Shown: positions 662-56,929 of the stretch, piece by piece
Position numbering within the stretch: position 1 is the stretch's first letter
Layout of the letters: each line of letters begins with the position of its first letter
DNA from: a phage
Strand: one strand, 5' to 3'
Sequence record: PZ452594.1
DNA: 64,000 bases
Program-made: the position numbers and the translations under genes
The notes under the pieces: generated by a model
Told to the model about the DNA's origin: nothing
Databases searched by the model: none
Seen by the model: only the letters and a program-made list of their open reading frames with translations

Positions 662-1297
662 TCACAGTTCAGATGCTACAGTGATTACAGCTTCAATGTT
701 TTCTGCTGAGCGTTTAATGTCAAGATACACATTACCGTTTTTAGCGATTTTACATGACATTCCGATGTCAGTAAATTTCTGAATATGATGTTCCATCATT
801 TTGTATCCAAAAATTCGCATATTTCCATTATTGTTAATTTCAAAATTGCGAATTCCATGAGTACGTTTTTCTAAAATAGCAAGATAATTACTACGATAAG
901 TTTCAACCTTTTTAAGAACAAATCCATTTTCATCTAAAAGTTTTAACATGAGGTCTTTATCTTCTTCCATATCGGAAGTAATCTCGCGAGCTTTACGAGT
1001 TGCTCGTTTTTTCAGTAGTTCCGGAGCATTTTCCTGTGCGTATAAAGTTGCTGCGTTTGAAATAATATCCTGAGCTTCACCTGTAATGATTAATCCATCA
1101 CCAGATTTCTCCACCAGGCCTTTTTTAATCAATACCCCAATATTACTATTAACTACTGCGTTACCTAAATCTGGATGCACCTCACGAACTTCTGCAGCTG
1201 TAATGAAATCTTTCTTAGCAATAGTAATTAAAATCGCAGCAGTTTTTTCATTCAGAACATCGTTAGAAGTTTTGATGATGTAAGTTACTTTAGACAT
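662..1297 (-). CDS. motA: MotA, activator of middle transcription (211 aa)
   Basis: Protein MSKVTYIIKTSNDVLNEK... recognised as T4 MotA; length 211 aa matches. Confidence 0.9.
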   Translation of the reverse strand: MSKVTYIIKTSNDVLNEKTAAILITIAKKDFITAAEVREVHPDLGNAVVNSNIGVLIKKGLVEKSGDGLIITGEAQDIISNAATLYAQENAPELLKKRATRKAREITSDMEEDKDLMLKLLDENGFVLKKVETYRSNYLAILEKRTHGIRNFEINNNGNMRIFGYKMMEHHIQKFTDIGMSCKIAKNGNVYLDIKRSAENIEAVITVASEL

Positions 1298-1423: not shown

Positions 1424-1573
1424 TTACTGCTCGAACGCGATAACTATCGTGATAACACGTTGAATTCCGAACGCAAGAAGACCTCCTGCTACGGCTGGAA
1501 CAACGCCTAAACCCGCCAGTAAAATGCTACCAGATACTAATGCAGCGCTTGTAATACCTATGAATGGACTCAT
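1424..1573 (-). CDS. small hydrophobic membrane peptide (49 aa)
   Basis: Hand-translated MSPFIGITSAALVSGSILLAGLGVVPAVAGGLLAFGIQRVITIVIAFEQ; ATG overlaps gene 52 stop in ATGA; below track size cutoff. Confidence 0.45.
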   Translation of the reverse strand: MSPFIGITSAALVSGSILLAGLGVVPAVAGGLLAFGIQRVITIVIAFEQ

Positions 1574-2902: not shown

Positions 2903-3043
2903 TTACCATACTAGTGAATGTAGTGCCATAATAACATCAGAAATGAAAAGCACGACTTGAATTAATCCGAACATTACTCCATAATATAGTGCTATTAATA
3001 AAATAGCAAGGGCTAATGAATAGCCCAAGATTTTCTTAATCAT
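2903..3043 (-). CDS. small hydrophobic peptide (46 aa)
   Basis: Hand-translated MIKKILGYSLALAILLIALYYGVMFGLIQVVLFISDVIMALHSLVW; immediately upstream of gene 52. Confidence 0.4.
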   Translation of the reverse strand: MIKKILGYSLALAILLIALYYGVMFGLIQVVLFISDVIMALHSLVW

Positions 3044-3191
3044 TAGATAACAACACAAATGTTAAATATGCACACATACCCTGAGCTAAAGCTTGCGAAA
3101 ACACACTGCTGGCATCAATACAGATAGTTAAAACACATGCTACTATCCAACAAATAAATGAAATAACTCCTAATAATTTTGCAATATTCAT
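3036..3191 (-). CDS. small hydrophobic peptide (51 aa), ac-like by position and size
   Basis: Hand-translated MNIAKLLGVISFICWIVACVLTICIDASSVFSQALAQGMCAYLTFVLLSND; T4 has the 51-codon ac gene in this neighbourhood (from memory). Confidence 0.4.
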   Translation of the reverse strand: MNIAKLLGVISFICWIVACVLTICIDASSVFSQALAQGMCAYLTFVLLSND

Positions 3192-3278
3192 ATTTTCCTC
3201 ACTGGCGTCCGAAGACGCCTTTAGTTTTAAAATTATTACGATAGAACTGCATCACATGTTCGTTATGGAAATTACTCA

Positions 3279-3737
3279 TTAATATGCCTGCAAAACAAAT
3301 TTAAAGTTATCAGCCAACATACGGTTCATTTCTTCAAGTGTTTGATACTCAGAATGATGATTACGAGTAAACGCCAAAGCTAACTGACCTTTACCAAATC
3401 CTGTCGTCAGAGGTTTCATCTTAGAAGCAGGCAGATAAAATACTGTGTATGGAACATTGTTATTTGCAATAGTACGTGCAAGCTGAGACCGACGTTGACG
3501 AATATGACTTAGAACTGCACTGAATCCTTGCTTAGAACGCTGATTACCTACATAAAATCGTGCAGACACACATGGATTACTAAATGGACGACCATCTAAT
3601 TTACTTACTAAAAAGTAAAATCCAGGTTTAGATAAAATATCTTTATGCGGAGTTCCCAAAAACCATTCACCACCCTTGATTGTACCAATAACGGTAGCGC
3701 CCGCATTATTCAGATCAGTAACAGTCATGTATTTCAT
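3279..3737 (-). CDS. ndd: Ndd nucleoid-disruption protein (~152 aa)
   Basis: [35 protein letters not shown]... recognised as T4 Ndd; start moved to internal ATG with SD AGAGGA (track ORF 3279-3785 begins at a non-ATG codon). Confidence 0.8.
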
Positions 3738-3797
3738 ATTAATTTCCTCTAAATTATTTTCTACTCCAAGGCCGCATGAATACACACGGCCATTAAA

Positions 3798-4013
3798 TTA
3801 ATCGTCGCAGTCGACGCTCAATTCCCAAAACTCTTCTACGGTATAAGTTTCAGTATCATTTTCAATACAGAAACGTTCATTACTATTGTTTGCTAAAGTA
3901 GCGTTAACTGTCATTTTCTCGCTGGTGCTCTTAAGAGGTGAAATACGAATTAACTGATCGCCGTTATCTAAACAAAAAATTTCACCAACTTTTACATCTT
4001 TAAAGATTTTCAT
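3798..4013 (-). CDS. hypothetical protein (71 aa)
   Basis: ORF track; position corresponds to T4 ndd.x small ORFs. Confidence 0.5.
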   Translation of the reverse strand: MKIFKDVKVGEIFCLDNGDQLIRISPLKSTSEKMTVNATLANNSNERFCIENDTETYTVEEFWELSVDCDD

Positions 4014-4128
4014 AATTCACCTCAAGGAGTATAAAATCCAAACGCAGTTGTTGACCATCCCATCCAATACGGGAAATTTGCGCCAATGTAAAACATAAGA
4101 ATATAAAACCAACCGCTCAGCAAATTCA

Positions 4129-4326
4129 TCATTTTACACCATTCCAAATTGTTTCAATCACGGATTTTAAACCATTTTGATGAATATCAATTCCGACAAC
4201 TGCCATCAAATAGATTCCAACTACAACTGAACCCAAGGCGAAAATCAGCATGAAAATGAATAAAGCCGGAAAAATATTATCGAAAAACCATTCAATAAAT
4301 GTAAAAGCACTGCGTTTACGCTTCAT
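4129..4326 (-). CDS. small membrane protein (~65 aa)
   Basis: ORF track 4129-4347; start moved to ATG with SD GAGGAAAAT; hydrophobic core IFPALFIFMLIFALGSVVVGIYLMAVV. Confidence 0.5.
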   Translation of the reverse strand: MKRKRSAFTFIEWFFDNIFPALFIFMLIFALGSVVVGIYLMAVVGIDIHQNGLKSVIETIWNGVK

Positions 4327-4333
4327 ATTTTCC

Positions 4334-4447
4334 TCACATAAATCCAAAGTAAACGTTTAATACATCAATCATTAAAACGATTGGGAATATACTCAAAACT
4401 ATTAGTATTATAACTACATTCCATATAGCTTTAACAATCTTTTTCAT
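4334..4447 (-). CDS. small membrane peptide (37 aa)
   Basis: MKKIVKAIWNVVIILIVLSIFPIVLMIDVLNVYFGFM preceded by SD GGAGGAACAG; C-terminal part of track ORF 4334-4582. Confidence 0.45.
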   Translation of the reverse strand: MKKIVKAIWNVVIILIVLSIFPIVLMIDVLNVYFGFM

Positions 4448-4475
4448 TTTCTGTTCCTCCGTAGTTGATAGGGTA

Positions 4476-4505
4476 ATAGTACTACGGAGGAACAGTCTTG
4501 TAAAC
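4476..4505 (-). promoter_or_regulatory. T4-type early promoter flanked by a 14-bp inverted repeat
   Basis: GTTTAC (rc 4500-4505), 18-nt spacer, -10 TACTAT (rc 4476-4481); inverted repeat ctgttcctccgtag / ctacggaggaacag spans the -10 and the downstream SD. Confidence 0.45.
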
Positions 4506-4754
4506 AACTTTTTTAAAAATATTCGTAATAAATGTGAATACCAATCACTACTGCCGAAACCTGTGCAACCCACCACGCACAAGCAATAAGTACAGAATTC
4601 AAAATTTTCATAATAACCTCATCACAAAAGTAAATGTTAAACAAATTACTGGAATACTAATTAACCAAACAAAACACCACCATAATGAACTCATAGTTCA
4701 ATCTCAGCGATTTTCATTTTATTCTCCAAATCTGTATCAGTAGTTGATAGTTGT

Positions 4755-4784
4755 ATAGTACCACGGTCCTTGTGGTATGTAAAC
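4755..4784 (-). promoter_or_regulatory. T4-type early promoter
   Basis: GTTTAC (rc 4779-4784), 18-nt spacer, TACTAT (rc 4755-4760); directly downstream of denB stop. Confidence 0.4.
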
Positions 4785-4799
4785 CATTTTGTGAAATTT

Positions 4800-5357
4800 T
4801 TAAATGGAAAGATACCATCCGTTGTAGTTGCTTTTTCTTACAACCTTACGAAGGTCTTCTCTGTCACCGATGAACTTCGGAGTGTACTGGATGACACCTG
4901 GATGAATTTCTTTAGTGTTGAATATAATTATACAGTCAGCGACTTGATGATTCAGAATGGGCCCTAGATTTATTCCAGAACCGTATGGATACTCTCCGCT
5001 GCATCCGGTTGTTACCGAAATCCATCGTGAGTCAGTTTGATGTGTTTTGACTTCTACACGAAGCCCACAGTATTTTGGATGCGCCAATACATCCCATGCA
5101 TATGTATATGGGTCATTAACATCCTCTTGGCCTTTGTTAACATACCCGCTTAGCCAATCTGCTACAAAAAATTCTGCGTACACAGCGATACGACATCTTT
5201 CAATAACTTCTGCTTTATCCTGGTTCGGGTTTTGTTTTAAAGAGTATCTTGCTGTATCAGCAATTTTGGCCTTCATTTCACTAGTCAAGTCACTGTTCGA
5301 TAGGGTAAATGTCGGAATCTGAAATAGTCTCTGCAAACCCGGATTCGTTTTCTGCAT
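4800..5357 (-). CDS. denB: endonuclease IV DenB (185 aa)
   Basis: 185-aa product, position between rIIB and ndd, sequence recognised as T4 DenB. Confidence 0.85.
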   Translation of the reverse strand: MQKTNPGLQRLFQIPTFTLSNSDLTSEMKAKIADTARYSLKQNPNQDKAEVIERCRIAVYAEFFVADWLSGYVNKGQEDVNDPYTYAWDVLAHPKYCGLRVEVKTHQTDSRWISVTTGCSGEYPYGSGINLGPILNHQVADCIIIFNTKEIHPGVIQYTPKFIGDREDLRKVVRKSNYNGWYLSI

Positions 5358-5420
5358 TTAAACTTTCCTTTATGTCGGAATCATAATTTCCCTTAAAACA
5401 AAAGGGCCGAAGCCCTTATT

Positions 5421-5615: not shown

Positions 5616-5643
5616 AATTTTCCTTAGTTAAGGGCCGAAGCCC

Positions 5644-6582
5644 TTATTTAAATTGTTCAGTAACGTCTTCAACTACTTCGTATTGGCAGGTACGCATTTT
5701 AGCATCGTTGTAATCAATCGGAATTGATACTACATCACGCGGATGTACTTTAACTTTTACGACTCGGATGGTTGAACTGCCAAAGTGACGAATATAAGAT
5801 TTAGAACATACATGCAGACCACGAGAACAAGTTTGTGTATCATCGTCATTCACACGAGTACGTGGCATTTTAACTACTTTACCCGGACTGTTATCAAAGG
5901 TGTTTGAGTGACAGTCAAAGTAATTGCTGCGAACTACTTTCCAAGCATAGAAGTAACCATCTTCTGTAATTTCAATATCGTTTGCTACCAAGAAATCAAA
6001 GAGTCGAGATACTGCTTTTTGGCTCGGGTTTTCCAACAGATTTTCCAAGAACGGAAAATAAAATTCAAAGTTTTCGCCTTTTTCCATCGAATCGAGAATA
6101 CGATCAACTAAACCAGACCGCAATTCAATATTTTGATAGAACAAGCTTCCACCTTCAATTCGAACATCACCGGAAATATATTTTTCAACAGCGCGTCGAA
6201 CATTAATTTTTTGTGCAGCTTCTTCTAATTTATCTGCAACAAGCAGATTAAGAATTTCCTGGAAATTTGAATGAGTATTAGGGGTTGCGTTATAAGTTAC
6301 ACCATCAACAGTAATTGAAATGAATTTTTTAGATGCATTCCAAATAATGTCAGATTTAGCAACTGGAGCAATAACTGCATCGCTATTAACTTTAACTGTA
6401 ATATCACCGCTAATAGTAACTTTAGGGTGTTTAGCTTCTTCAGCATTTTTCAAAACACGACGGATTGTGTCAACCGATACACCTTGCCAATCAGCCAATT
6501 CCTGCTGAGTGTAATTACCACTTGAATACAGTTTAACAATTTCAGCTTGTTCGTTTTTGGTCAGGCATTTAATATTGTACAT
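5644..6582 (-). CDS. rIIB: rIIB rapid-lysis/membrane integrity protein (312 aa)
   Basis: MYNIKCLTKNEQAEIVKLYSSGNYTQQELADWQG... recognised as T4 rIIB; 312 aa. Confidence 0.93.
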   Translation of the reverse strand: MYNIKCLTKNEQAEIVKLYSSGNYTQQELADWQGVSVDTIRRVLKNAEEAKHPKVTISGDITVKVNSDAVIAPVAKSDIIWNASKKFISITVDGVTYNATPNTHSNFQEILNLLVADKLEEAAQKINVRRAVEKYISGDVRIEGGSLFYQNIELRSGLVDRILDSMEKGENFEFYFPFLENLLENPSQKAVSRLFDFLVANDIEITEDGYFYAWKVVRSNYFDCHSNTFDNSPGKVVKMPRTRVNDDDTQTCSRGLHVCSKSYIRHFGSSTIRVVKVKVHPRDVVSIPIDYNDAKMRTCQYEVVEDVTEQFK

Positions 6583-22667: not shown

Positions 22668-22868
22668 ATGGTACAAAAATTAATGGCACTTGTTAATGCC
22701 ATAAAAGGTAATAAAAAACGTATAGCTTTTACTATTTCTGCTATGGTAGGAATTTTACTCTGGAACTTTATTCTATCACCTGTTGCAATTGCACATGGTA
22801 TTAATATTCCAGTAGTTACTCTTGATACATTTGTAGATTTAGCATTTGCTTTAGTTGGGTTGATTTAA
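22668..22868 (+). CDS. small hydrophobic protein (66 aa) on the opposite strand
   Basis: ATG 22668 preceded by AAGGAGG (22657-22663); two hydrophobic segments; convergent with gene 61 and ends 3 nt into it. Confidence 0.5.
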   Translation: MVQKLMALVNAIKGNKKRIAFTISAMVGILLWNFILSPVAIAHGINIPVVTLDTFVDLAFALVGLI

Positions 22869-29897: not shown

Positions 29898-30050
29898 TTA
29901 AACCTCAATTGATACATTCATATTTAACTTGTAACAGTAATAAACCCCAACCTATAATAAGTGGCGGAATCATAAGAGGAACTGTTACGCTATAGTATAT
30001 ACTTATTATAACCATCAAGATTAAAAGCAACACTGCTATAATTTTGCTTT

Positions 30051-30302
30051 TCATTCTTTCTCTCTGATGATAATTACCTGATTTGGATGTGCAGACTTTT
30101 TGGTTTCACCCGCAATTGACCAAATGAATGTAATAAACCAACCAATAATTGACCAATTAAACAGTAAAGACGTGAAAAAGATTCCTACTGTCGATTTTGA
30201 CCCACGCATCAAGGCGATGAACCATGGAAGCATGTATATAATAATAGCCAACACACCTGAAACTAAAACCATAAAAATTGAACCTGCTACTAAAGTTTCC
30301 AT
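30051..30302 (-). CDS. imm: Imm superinfection immunity membrane protein (83 aa)
   Basis: Two hydrophobic helices (METLVAGSIFMVLVSGVLAIIIYMLPWFIALM...); 83 aa; position between 43 and 42. Confidence 0.85.
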   Translation of the reverse strand: METLVAGSIFMVLVSGVLAIIIYMLPWFIALMRGSKSTVGIFFTSLLFNWSIIGWFITFIWSIAGETKKSAHPNQVIIIREKE

Positions 30303-30982: not shown

Positions 30983-31012
30983 ATAGTACCACAGAGGAAC
31001 AGTCTTGTAAAC
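30983..31012 (-). promoter_or_regulatory. T4-type early promoter (cassette copy)
   Basis: GTTTAC (rc 31007-31012), 18-nt spacer, TACTAT (rc 30983-30988); 52-bp block identical to 56878-56929. Confidence 0.5.
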
Positions 31013-56899: not shown

Positions 56900-56929
56900 A
56901 TAGTACCACAGAGGAACAGTCTTGTAAAC
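56900..56929 (-). promoter_or_regulatory. T4-type early promoter (cassette copy)
   Basis: GTTTAC (rc 56924-56929), 18-nt spacer, TACTAT (rc 56900-56905); 52-bp block identical to 30961-31012. Confidence 0.5.

Follow-up and report, generated by a model that had tools for sequence, protein, structure and literature searches.

Small hydrophobic-peptide genes in the 52-to-denB interval of a T4-like phage

Several short hydrophobic peptides are known to act on the bacterial envelope. AcrZ binds AcrB and provides a micro-protein precedent for modulating AcrB, the target proposed for the T4 protein Ac. Like the type I toxins (Hok, Ldr, Ibs, TisB), AcrZ has ∼20–50 amino acids and one or two hydrophobic helices, and acts in the inner membrane. 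On the phage side, the single-gene lysis proteins phiX174 E and levivirus M inhibit MraY and MurJ, respectively, and small T4 membrane proteins such as Imm act in superinfection exclusion. The peptides considered here, encoded between genes 52 and denB, are alike in length and hydrophobicity and would probably share the inner-membrane location. However, they have no sequence relationship to AcrZ or the type I toxins, and they come from early phage genes that have promoters of their own and no evident antisense RNA partner. Nor are they homologous to Imm, E or M, which act on host envelope machinery; in contrast to these, they are early and non-lytic.

In T4 itself, clusters of predicted membrane proteins have been pointed out (Miller et al. 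2003, as quoted in the Ac preprint), and the products of ndd.1–ndd.6 were described as unknown by Kutter et al. (2018). Parts of T4-type genomes are hyperplastic and carry multiple near-identical promoter-early stem-loop (PeSL) cassettes, in which a TTTACW-N17-TAYWAT promoter has a stem-loop over its –10 box and a Shine-Dalgarno (SD) sequence and ATG at its 3′ end (Arbiol 2010; Comeau 2014).

The window analyzed here (the whole stretch of 64,000 nucleotides in record PZ452594.1) is from a T4-like (Tequatrovirus) genome, and the region of interest is the 52-to-denB accessory block of T-even phage. Seven genes for hydrophobic micro-proteins of 28–65 residues lie in this interval, interleaved with stp, ndd and ndd.1. 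The features are as follows.

2903–3043, minus strand: 52.1, 46 aa, GRAVY 1.80; DUF7396, phrog_3595, T4 annotation
3036–3191, minus strand: ac, 51 aa, GRAVY 1.46; SD GAGGA; phrog_2501
3199–3279, minus strand: stp, 26 aa, hydrophilic, context; Pfam Nuclease_act (71 bits), T4 annotation
3279–3737, minus strand: ndd, 152-aa nucleoid disruption protein, landmark of the cluster
3798–4013, minus strand: ndd.1, 71 aa, acidic and soluble, context
4022–4132, minus strand: ndd.2, 36 aa, hydrophobic and aromatic-rich; phrog_4135, T4 annotation
4129–4326, minus strand: ndd.2a/3, intact, 65 aa; DUF7248, phrog_2401; corresponds to T4 'ndd.3' plus 'ndd.2a'
4334–4447, minus strand: ndd.4, 37 aa, single transmembrane (TM) segment, GRAVY 1.87; strong SD GGAGG
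4451–4504, minus strand: putative PeSL-type cassette, TTTACA-N17-TACTAT (site 4504→4476), with a perfect 15-bp stem-loop (arms 4451–4465 and 4481–4495)
4513–4611, minus strand: ndd.5, 32 aa, single TM segment, GRAVY 1.26; SD GAGG; phrog_5011
4608–4694, minus strand: ndd.6, 28 aa, single TM segment, GRAVY 1.77; weak SD GAG; phrog_8851
4691–4717, minus strand: mini-ORF MKIAEIEL*, 8 codons; SD GGAG
4755–4783, minus strand: putative early promoter, TTTACA-N17-TACTAT with TG (site 4783→4755), upstream of the mini-ORF, ndd.6 and ndd.5

The original prediction listed five hydrophobic ORFs, and all five are present on the minus strand. Its coordinates are exact for the three ORFs for which they were given in full, whereas the 32-codon ORF (4513–4611) starts to the left of the range of ∼4590–4700 assigned to it. 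The five match annotated T4 genes one-to-one (52.1, ac, ndd.4, ndd.5 and ndd.6) with 95–100% protein identity (0–2 residue differences), and the ORF described as 'ac-sized' is ac itself, its product being the same as T4 Ac at 51/51 residues. Gene order, strand, position between 52 and denB, PHROG and Pfam families, and promoter cassettes are all common to this locus and T4 (NC_000866, T4p265–T4p275). Two differences from the T4 reference lie in the 65-aa gene, which is intact here, whereas in T4 the loss of 1 nt after ATGAA divides it into ndd.3 and ndd.2a (T4 ndd.3 being a PHROG singleton), and in the upstream ATG of the 42-aa T4 annotation of ndd.4, which is ACG here and in relatives. A PHROG family exists for each of the peptides and a Pfam family also for 52.1 and ndd.2a/3. 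The genes are thus already known from the T4 reference annotation, PHROGs and partly Pfam, and the novelty implied by presenting the ORFs as additions to a computed list falls away, as every one is annotated in the T4 reference genome. That the ORFs are these real T4 genes we regard as practically certain. Two hydrophobic members of the cluster, ndd.2 and ndd.2a/3, were missing from the earlier list.

The best 19-residue hydrophobicity window ranges from 2.2 to 3.1 across the peptides. No paralogy was detected among the seven in an all-against-all hhalign comparison (best probability 16.5%, for 52.1 versus ndd.4; the rest <7%), and the seven belong to unrelated families. The start signal is an SD of the gene's own for ac, ndd.2a/3, ndd.4 and ndd.5, and an overlap with the preceding ORF for 52.1, ndd.2 and ndd.6. 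The SDs predicted for the five ORFs are clear in ac, ndd.4 and ndd.5, but weak in ndd.6 and absent in 52.1. T4-derived annotation calls ndd.2, ndd.2a, ndd.5 and ndd.6 'outer membrane protein' or 'periplasmic protein'. The peptides bearing these labels have 28–36 aa and one hydrophobic helix, and the inner membrane is a more likely location for them.

Small hydrophobic ORFs can arise by chance in AT-rich DNA or persist as leftovers of cassette shuffling, without encoding any functional peptide. Indeed, the window contains 28 ATG-initiated ORFs of 25–70 aa with GRAVY ≥1.0, compared to 3.6 ± 1.8 when dinucleotides are shuffled, and wrong frames inside larger genes account for many of the 28; hence hydrophobicity alone is weak evidence. 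Conservation was assessed in GenBank phage records, as a scan of IMG/VR with Ndd gave only five loci. By tblastn, the five listed ORFs occur in 463–730 phage genomes. All Tequatrovirus genomes examined have the frames open and co-linear, SD or overlap contexts are conserved among relatives, and purifying selection (dN/dS ∼0.1–0.5, computed at saturating dS) acts on the five of the seven peptides that are also found in other Tevenvirinae genera, with values for the cross-genus orthologues that resemble that of ndd itself. Variable sites in 52.1, ndd.4, ndd.5 and ndd.6 together fall at codon positions 1, 2 and 3 in the numbers 15, 4 and 20, a depletion at the second position (chi-square ∼10, P ∼0.006). 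End-to-end tiling of the coding strand between 52 and denB, cross-genus conservation, dN/dS <1 and second-position depletion place the five ORFs above chance. The genetics of ac, including point mutants, argue in the same direction. Although the restriction of ndd.5 to one genus, the failure to detect the peptides by mass spectrometry and the lack of a knock-down phenotype (see below) could be cited for chance frames, this explanation is largely refuted by conservation, and we consider it extremely unlikely. The prediction that these are genuine small hydrophobic-peptide genes, which loss of the frames in relatives would have contradicted, stands, since the frames are conserved. Occasional natural frameshifts (ndd.2a/3 in T4 and ESh34, ndd.6 in G8, ac in T6) indicate that individual genes are dispensable.

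The product of 52.1 matches phrog_3595 (E 2e-25) and, over its full length (1–46), Pfam DUF7396 (80.1 bits; gathering cut-off 27), and PF24129 is assigned to all 14 of its database clusters. Homologues are found in seven other Tevenvirinae genera, each time adjoining gene 52, with dN/dS of 0.08–0.4 and invariant residues Y20, Y21, G22, Q29 and D36 (core YYG...QVVLFISD). An AF2 model predicts a single 44-residue helix (residues 2–45, pLDDT 96), compatible with one membrane crossing as well as with folding back at the conserved YYG. At its ATG, 52.1 shares 8 nt with the end of ac (ATGATTAA), implying translational coupling to ac, and its stop lies 4 nt before the ATG of gene 52, which has no good SD of its own. 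Outside Tevenvirinae, no 52.1 homologue was recognized in the Acinetobacter, Aeromonas, Krischvirus, Providencia and Vibrio T4-like phages examined. Some T4-like phages in which 52.1 goes unrecognized have unrelated hydrophobic ORFs upstream of gene 52. A Rosetta-stone fusion of 52.1 to gp52 was considered for the Aeromonas phages and rejected, as the 100-residue N-terminal extension of gp52 there is an acidic stretch that lacks hydrophobic character (best 19-residue window 0.13–0.47).

This arrangement raises the question of whether some of the ORFs matter chiefly as translated leaders (52.1 for the essential gene 52, ndd.2a/3 for ndd.2), with the peptides being secondary. In each of the eight Tevenvirinae genera that yielded 52.1, 4–5 nt separate its stop from the following ATG of gene 52, which has a poor SD; ATGA-type overlaps are conserved; and the mini-ORF, left over from a deletion, has retained exactly such coupling for ndd.6. 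However, purifying selection on the amino acid sequence of 52.1 is strong, and the invariant core would be superfluous in a mere leader. Moreover, knock-down at the 52.1 start is scored 'Not Fit' and gene 52 'Fit', suggesting that gene 52 expression is independent of 52.1 in the laboratory. We therefore find a primary leader role very unlikely.

The remaining peptides show family-specific features of their own. ndd.2, whose start overlaps the upstream stop (ATGA), has a motif N.PYW.GW that is kept in Kanagawavirus and a Klebsiella phage. ndd.2a/3 (67.3 bits to DUF7248; gathering cut-off 27) combines a basic N-terminal end with a single long TM segment, and its C-terminus carries the conserved motif NGLKSV..TIWNG. 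Homologues of ndd.4, which is present in 596 phage records (tblastn), are found in Dhaka-, Gapriver- and Kanagawavirus and a Klebsiella phage, and residues P22 and D27 are conserved inside its hydrophobic stretch. Most pairs of ndd.4 within Tequatrovirus show 0 synonymous versus 1–2 non-synonymous differences, making the within-genus selection signal uninformative. ndd.5 is confined to Tequatrovirus (494 records by tblastn), with eight of its nine variable sites at third codon positions and dN/dS of ∼0.08. It is the sole peptide with a lipobox-like sequence (LIAC, residues 8–11), which is too N-terminal for a typical signal peptide. ndd.6 has homologues in Dhaka-, Gapriver-, Mosig-, Kanagawa- and Gelderlandvirus, with P15 conserved inside the hydrophobic stretch. 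The ndd.6 start codon shares an ATGA with the stop of the ORF before it, a coupling context that is conserved. In most relatives, ndd.6 is preceded by an 87-aa gene, annotated in phage 107, of which the mini-ORF is the remnant 3′ end; with it, ndd.6 retains its termination-reinitiation context.

Two putative sigma-70-type early promoter cassettes of the PeSL kind precede the peptide genes. In the ndd.4 cassette, the loop contains the –10 box, the 3′ arm contains the SD of ndd.4, and the predicted fold has an energy of –27.4 kcal/mol (z = –6.4). Pairing is retained in 96.7% of cells in an alignment of 10 sequences; among these, no two-sided compensatory changes were seen, only one-sided wobble-preserving ones, no better than in shuffles. 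The promoter at 4755–4783 is a direct repeat of this cassette (families D2 and D4), and the window has 15 matches to the pattern TTTACW-N17-TAYWAT, every one of them on the minus strand, versus 0.43 expected. We see no essential difference from the cassettes of other T4-type hyperplastic regions, the copies here being known from sequence. Comeau (2014) gave both the PeSL consensus and the ndd.4/ndd.5 cassette as an example of PeSL-mediated exchange, and promoter and terminator/attenuator activity has been measured for the RB49 cassettes only. The genes sit in a hyperplastic region organized by PeSL cassettes.

All these genes are assigned to the early transcript class in T4, and ndd.1 protein is detected early in the proteome. 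None of the peptides has been detected by mass spectrometry in T4-infected cells, which is weak evidence, as short, trypsin-poor hydrophobic peptides are expected to escape detection. No T4 ribosome-profiling study was found in the literature. Gene-by-gene translation knock-down with dCas13d had no fitness effect, and the whole block can be deleted with a burst of ∼50%; any function would therefore be conditional. Overall, the best explanation is that the 52–denB block is an early micro-protein accessory block, a reading to which we assign a probability of about 80%. On this view, the peptides would enter the inner membrane of the host in the first minutes after infection, either as one helix each or as a helical hairpin, and each might tune some host envelope function, helping the phage only under particular conditions.

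Within the cluster, a phenotype is known for ac only. Its product matches phrog_2501 (E 2.2e-25), PF26944 is precomputed on identical or near-identical proteins, and an AF2 model (pLDDT 71) predicts a two-helix shape (residues 3–25 and 30–50). Conserved polar or helix-breaking residues (D26, Q33, Q37 and G38) interrupt its hydrophobic stretches, and two divergent ac alleles circulate within one genus. From work on the identical T4 protein, Ac is the acriflavine-sensitivity determinant: infected cells accumulate acridines through Ac, loss of Ac confers acriflavine resistance, as does G38R, and Ac expressed alone in E. coli sensitizes cells to acriflavine and ampicillin. Blockage of AcrAB-TolC by Ac has been proposed in the literature. 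Most plausibly, Ac interferes with a component of efflux or permeability, for example AcrAB-TolC, and the acridine effect follows as a by-product. More generally, the suggestion that such peptides act on host membrane proteins is plausible though not new, and we give even odds that their effects are exerted on host membrane components.

Two other modes of action deserve consideration. The peptides could be real but non-specific 'monkey wrench' toxins that depolarize or permeabilize the inner membrane and aid host shut-down. Bacterial type I toxins have a similar size and composition, the increased dye uptake in ac+ infections was originally taken as a permeability change, and many small immediate-early T4 genes are reported to be host-lethal when cloned (Kutter et al.). 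Yet within each family, particular polar or aromatic motifs persist from genus to genus, suggesting specific contacts, and the single G38R change abolishes the Ac effect. HMM comparison also revealed no similarity to any bacterial toxin family: in an NCBIfam search (Hok, Ldr, Ibs, TisB, AcrZ and others) the best match had E 0.029 and 14.8 bits against a cut-off of 150 bits, and none came near its cut-off. Non-specific action thus seems fairly unlikely. Alternatively, the peptides could be superinfection-exclusion or anti-defence factors directed against membrane-associated host or prophage systems, an idea in keeping with their neighbors rIIA/rIIB and stp. The genomic neighborhood, the two divergent ac alleles and the hyperplastic, shuffled nature of the region, which is typical of adaptive genes, fit such a role. 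No PADLOC model was matched, but that library comprises defence rather than anti-defence proteins. We judge this role unlikely.

Returning to action on host membrane components, one candidate activity comes from deletion genetics. [quoted passage not shown] The genes responsible have been in question since 1968–1990. Conceivably, the early T4 factor behind the phosphatidylglycerol stimulation is to be found among the denB-adjoining micro-proteins (ndd.2–ndd.6), one or more of which would act directly on a phospholipid-synthesis enzyme in the host inner membrane or on its regulator, although we regard this proposal as unlikely.

Many GenBank records omit or mislabel these micro-protein genes, and 30 years after sequencing they encode conserved early micro-proteins without assigned function. 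The block is the only T4 interval known to control phage stimulation of host phospholipid synthesis. If its proposed action were confirmed, Ac would be of practical interest as a natural inhibitor of a multidrug efflux pump.

A 2-kb query around the cluster matched 577 phage records, nearly all of them Tequatrovirus, with a best identity of 97.5%. In the T4 reference annotation, the genes of this region lie on a single strand in the order 52, 52.1, ac, stp, ndd, ndd.1, ndd.2, ndd.2a, ndd.3, ndd.4, ndd.5, ndd.6, denB, denB.1, rIIB, and on the minus strand of the window the ORFs follow the same order. The five hydrophobic ORFs of the original prediction are all among them, as 52.1, ac, ndd.4, ndd.5 and ndd.6. 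Two further hydrophobic ORFs, ndd.2 and ndd.2a/3, belong to the same cluster.

Hydrophobic micro-protein ORFs of the 52-to-denB block, with the number of phage records found by tblastn where counted
2903-3043, minus strand, 52.1, 46 aa; 730 records
3036-3191, minus strand, ac, 51 aa; 463 records (T4-type ac)
4022-4132, minus strand, ndd.2, 36 aa
4129-4326, minus strand, ndd.2a/3, 65 aa
4334-4447, minus strand, ndd.4, 37 aa; 596 records
4513-4611, minus strand, ndd.5, 32 aa; 494 records
4608-4694, minus strand, ndd.6, 28 aa; 494 records

The five predicted ORFs have GRAVY values of 1.26-1.87 and best 19-residue windows of 2.2-3.1, and they differ from T4 52.1, ac, ndd.4, ndd.5 and ndd.6 by 0-2 residues; the one described as ac-sized is ac itself. 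Shine-Dalgarno (SD) sequences had also been claimed, and good ones do precede ac, ndd.4 and ndd.5 (as well as ndd.2a/3), but that of ndd.6 is weak and 52.1 has none. 52.1 begins within ac, the two genes sharing 8 nt, and ndd.2 and ndd.6 each start in an ATGA overlap with the preceding ORF. The cluster corresponds to the 52-denB accessory block already known from T-even phages; the hyperplastic region that holds it and its regulatory cassettes are likewise known, and nothing in it is new in kind. In several GenBank records (e.g. NC_019503 ime09, NC_054942 SH7 and OL964735), ndd.x micro-genes are mislabelled 'naphthalene 1,2-dioxygenase', which looks like a propagated gene-symbol mix-up; in many others, 52.1 is unannotated.

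Could such ORFs arise by chance? In the window, 28 ATG-ORFs of 25-70 aa are hydrophobic by the same thresholds, compared to 3.6 in shuffles, and many of these are wrong-frame ORFs inside genes. Hydrophobicity alone is therefore no evidence in this genome, and the evidence we regard as decisive is comparative. We compared loci from 11 other Tequatrovirus phages and from seven other groups (Dhakavirus, Gaprivervirus, Mosigvirus, Kanagawavirus, Moonvirus, Gelderlandvirus and a Klebsiella T4-like phage). The seven frames are open in every Tequatrovirus compared, save three frameshifts. Each of the seven other groups has 52.1, although the copies in PEi20 and a Proteus phage are unannotated; ndd.4 and ndd.6 each occur in four or five groups, and ac, ndd.2 and ndd.2a/3 in several, while ndd.5 was not found in these seven groups. 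The frames are thus conserved within Tequatrovirus and, ndd.5 aside, in other genera, a point on which the original prediction could have failed. Between genera, dN/dS is 0.1-0.5, with synonymous sites near saturation and ndd in the same range. Among Tequatrovirus, codon positions 1, 2 and 3 carry 15, 4 and 20 variable sites, respectively (52.1, ndd.4, ndd.5 and ndd.6 summed). Each peptide matched its own PHROG (E values of 1e-17 to 1e-26); in Pfam, 52.1 matched DUF7396 and ndd.2a/3 matched DUF7248, and Ac carries PF26944 in a large protein database. For 52.1, only 14 clusters were found in a collection of 5.8 billion proteins, and the taxonomically named ones are all from T4-like phages, except for one entry filed under Shigella sonnei. 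Collectively, these comparisons, together with the tblastn counts, show that the micro-protein ORFs are real, phage-restricted genes. Another small hydrophobic ORF, motA.1 (1424-1573, minus strand; 49 aa), overlaps the end of gene 52. The remaining ones in the window, such as 29905-30054 near imm and 22668-22868 (plus strand), are probably a mixture of real membrane micro-genes and wrong-frame artefacts.

The comparison also bears on annotation. The T4 reference (NC_000866) has a 1-nt deletion just after a start codon (ATGAA-CGT versus ATGAAGCGT; window 4129-4326, minus strand; T4 4933-5129), so that a conserved DUF7248 gene (65 aa) is broken into 'ndd.3' and 'ndd.2a'. The intact gene is found in the window, Maryam, RPN226 and the other Tequatrovirus compared except ESh34, in which it is truncated. 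T4 'ndd.3', a PHROG singleton, is therefore a frame-shifted product and not a gene family. Similarly, the start ATG of the 42-aa ndd.4 annotated in T4 (window 4448-4462, minus strand; T4 5250-5265) is ACG in the window, Maryam, RPN226 and others, so the conserved gene is the 37-aa form, which starts at a downstream ATG preceded, 8 nt away, by GGAGG. An 87-aa gene ending in MKIAEIEL lies before ndd.6 in most relatives, and its stop codon overlaps the start codon of ndd.6. The window, T4 and Maryam have a promoter cassette in place of this gene and lack ~240 bp found upstream of ndd.6 in most Tequatrovirus. At 4691-4717 (minus strand), an 8-codon ORF, MKIAEIEL, with a new SD (GGAG), is the 3' remnant of the 87-aa gene and keeps the same overlap with ndd.6. 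The junction lies at ATGAAAATCGC, also found downstream of the imm.1 cassette in T4 (knock-down guide off-target list).

The coding strand has two promoter-like TTTACA-N17-TACTAT sites, at 4783->4755 and 4504->4476. The pattern equals the published consensus of the promoter-early stem-loop (PeSL) cassettes of T4/PST (Comeau 2014); 15 such sites were counted in the window, every one on the minus strand, versus 0.43 expected. The two cassettes near ndd.4-ndd.6 are direct repeats of each other, and the T4 ndd.4/.5 cassette is the example of PeSL-mediated exchange used by Comeau et al. (2014). The 4504->4476 site lies within a perfect 15-bp stem-loop (arms 4451-4465 and 4481-4495; -27.4 kcal/mol, z = -6.4), with its -10 box in the loop and the ndd.4 SD in the 3' arm. 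Given this layout, transcripts from its own promoter would carry an unpaired ndd.4 SD; in read-through transcripts from upstream, the SD would be paired, or the transcripts attenuated. Across 10 distinct copies of the stem-loop, 96.7% of cells pair; covariation in these copies was not above shuffles, all changes being one-sided with G-U kept. The ndd.4 promoter and stem-loop unit (TTTACAAGACTGTTCCTC.G..GTACTAT) is one of three near-identical copies, at 4451-4495, 30983-31011 and 56900-56928, minus strand. GC-rich hairpins with UUCG tetraloops were also seen on the coding (minus) strand, at 3204-3219, within the last stp codons (GVFGRQ and stop) just upstream of the ac SD, and at 5402-5417 and 5629-5646, after denB.1 and rIIB.

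Descent from one duplicated family was rejected: profile-profile comparison detected no kinship among the seven micro-proteins (best probability, 16.5%), leaving seven families. None resembled any NCBIfam family, bacterial small toxins included, or any PADLOC model. Conserved features fall within the hydrophobic stretches: LYYGV.FG..QVVLFISD in 52.1, with Asp36 invariant; D26 at the turn and SVF.Q..AQG in Ac; AIWN...SIFPIV..ID in ndd.4; MSS..WC.IW..SIP.IC in ndd.6; and N.PYW.GW in ndd.2. In ndd.2a/3, a single long hydrophobic stretch lies between a basic N-terminus and NGLKSV..TIWNG at the C-terminus. The Ac motif contains G38, whose change to Arg confers acriflavine resistance (10.1101/2025.06.30.662393). 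AlphaFold2 predicted a single helix for 52.1 (residues 2-45; pLDDT 96) and two helices for Ac (3-25 and 30-50; pLDDT 71), the latter in agreement with a published ESMFold hairpin (10.1101/2025.06.30.662393). Annotation derived from T4 labels some block genes 'outer membrane protein' or 'periplasmic protein', for which the tests run gave no support; an inner-membrane location would be the simplest reading.

Natural variants were seen at several of these loci. Two very different ac alleles exist within Tequatrovirus: those of RPN226 (1037-1189) and Shfl2 (2541-2693) are only distantly similar to T4 Ac (pN ~0.41) and resemble Gaprivervirus and Mosigvirus versions. The flanking genes are 95-100% identical, and the divergent alleles represent mosaic replacement of a single micro-gene. 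Ac of phage T6 is frame-shifted after G38-M39, and ndd.6 of G8 has lost its stop. A 47-aa protein from an ENA metagenomic contig (P0010) fuses the Ndd N-terminus to the 52.1 C-terminus, an ndd-stp-ac deletion like the classical sa deletions. In the Aeromonas phages Tulanevirus (L024 395-700) and Biquartavirus (L026 377-700), gp52 is extended at its N-terminus by an acidic stretch of ~100 residues, and its gene comes directly after ndd, with no micro-protein genes between. Raoultella phage RP180, a Kagunavirus and 45-kb siphovirus, has an unannotated 25-aa ORF in an intergenic gap (1195-1272, minus strand) that is identical to T4 Stp over the initial 24 residues and agrees with window Stp at 23 of 24 (DNA identity 88.9% across 72 nt); the same match was seen in a second Kagunavirus.

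In T4, 52.1, ac, stp, ndd.2, ndd.2a, ndd.3, ndd.4, ndd.5 and ndd.6 give early transcripts; mass spectrometry detected Ndd and Ndd.1 but not the products of 52.1, ac, stp or ndd.2-ndd.6, including ndd.2a (PMC9697503, Table S2). When translation was knocked down with dCas13d, the latter genes all scored 'Not Fit' and gene 52 'Fit' (PMC11879866 supplement). The sa-delta-9 deletion, which removes 52.1 through denB, still yields ~50% of wild-type phage (PMC6071114).

Among the seven micro-proteins, genetics exist for Ac only. Infection is acriflavine-sensitive with wild-type ac and resistant with ac deletions or point mutants, and expression of Ac by itself makes E. coli more sensitive to acriflavine and ampicillin; blockage of AcrAB-TolC by Ac has been proposed on this basis by the authors (10.1101/2025.06.30.662393), an idea restated as an assumption in a 2026 PNAS paper. 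Action on host membrane proteins, as originally suggested, is thus already proposed for Ac, and is plausible, although unproven, for all seven. Kutter et al. described the ndd.1-ndd.6 products as without known function. They also reported that infection no longer stimulates phospholipid synthesis when sa-delta-9 is present, that the partly overlapping rII-delta-DD2 loses the phosphatidylglycerol-specific stimulation, and that the genes responsible are an open question (PMC6071114). The remaining interest lies in the six conserved peptides, of seven, that are still without function, and in the unmapped lipid-synthesis phenotype of the block, for which the micro-proteins adjoining denB are obvious candidates.
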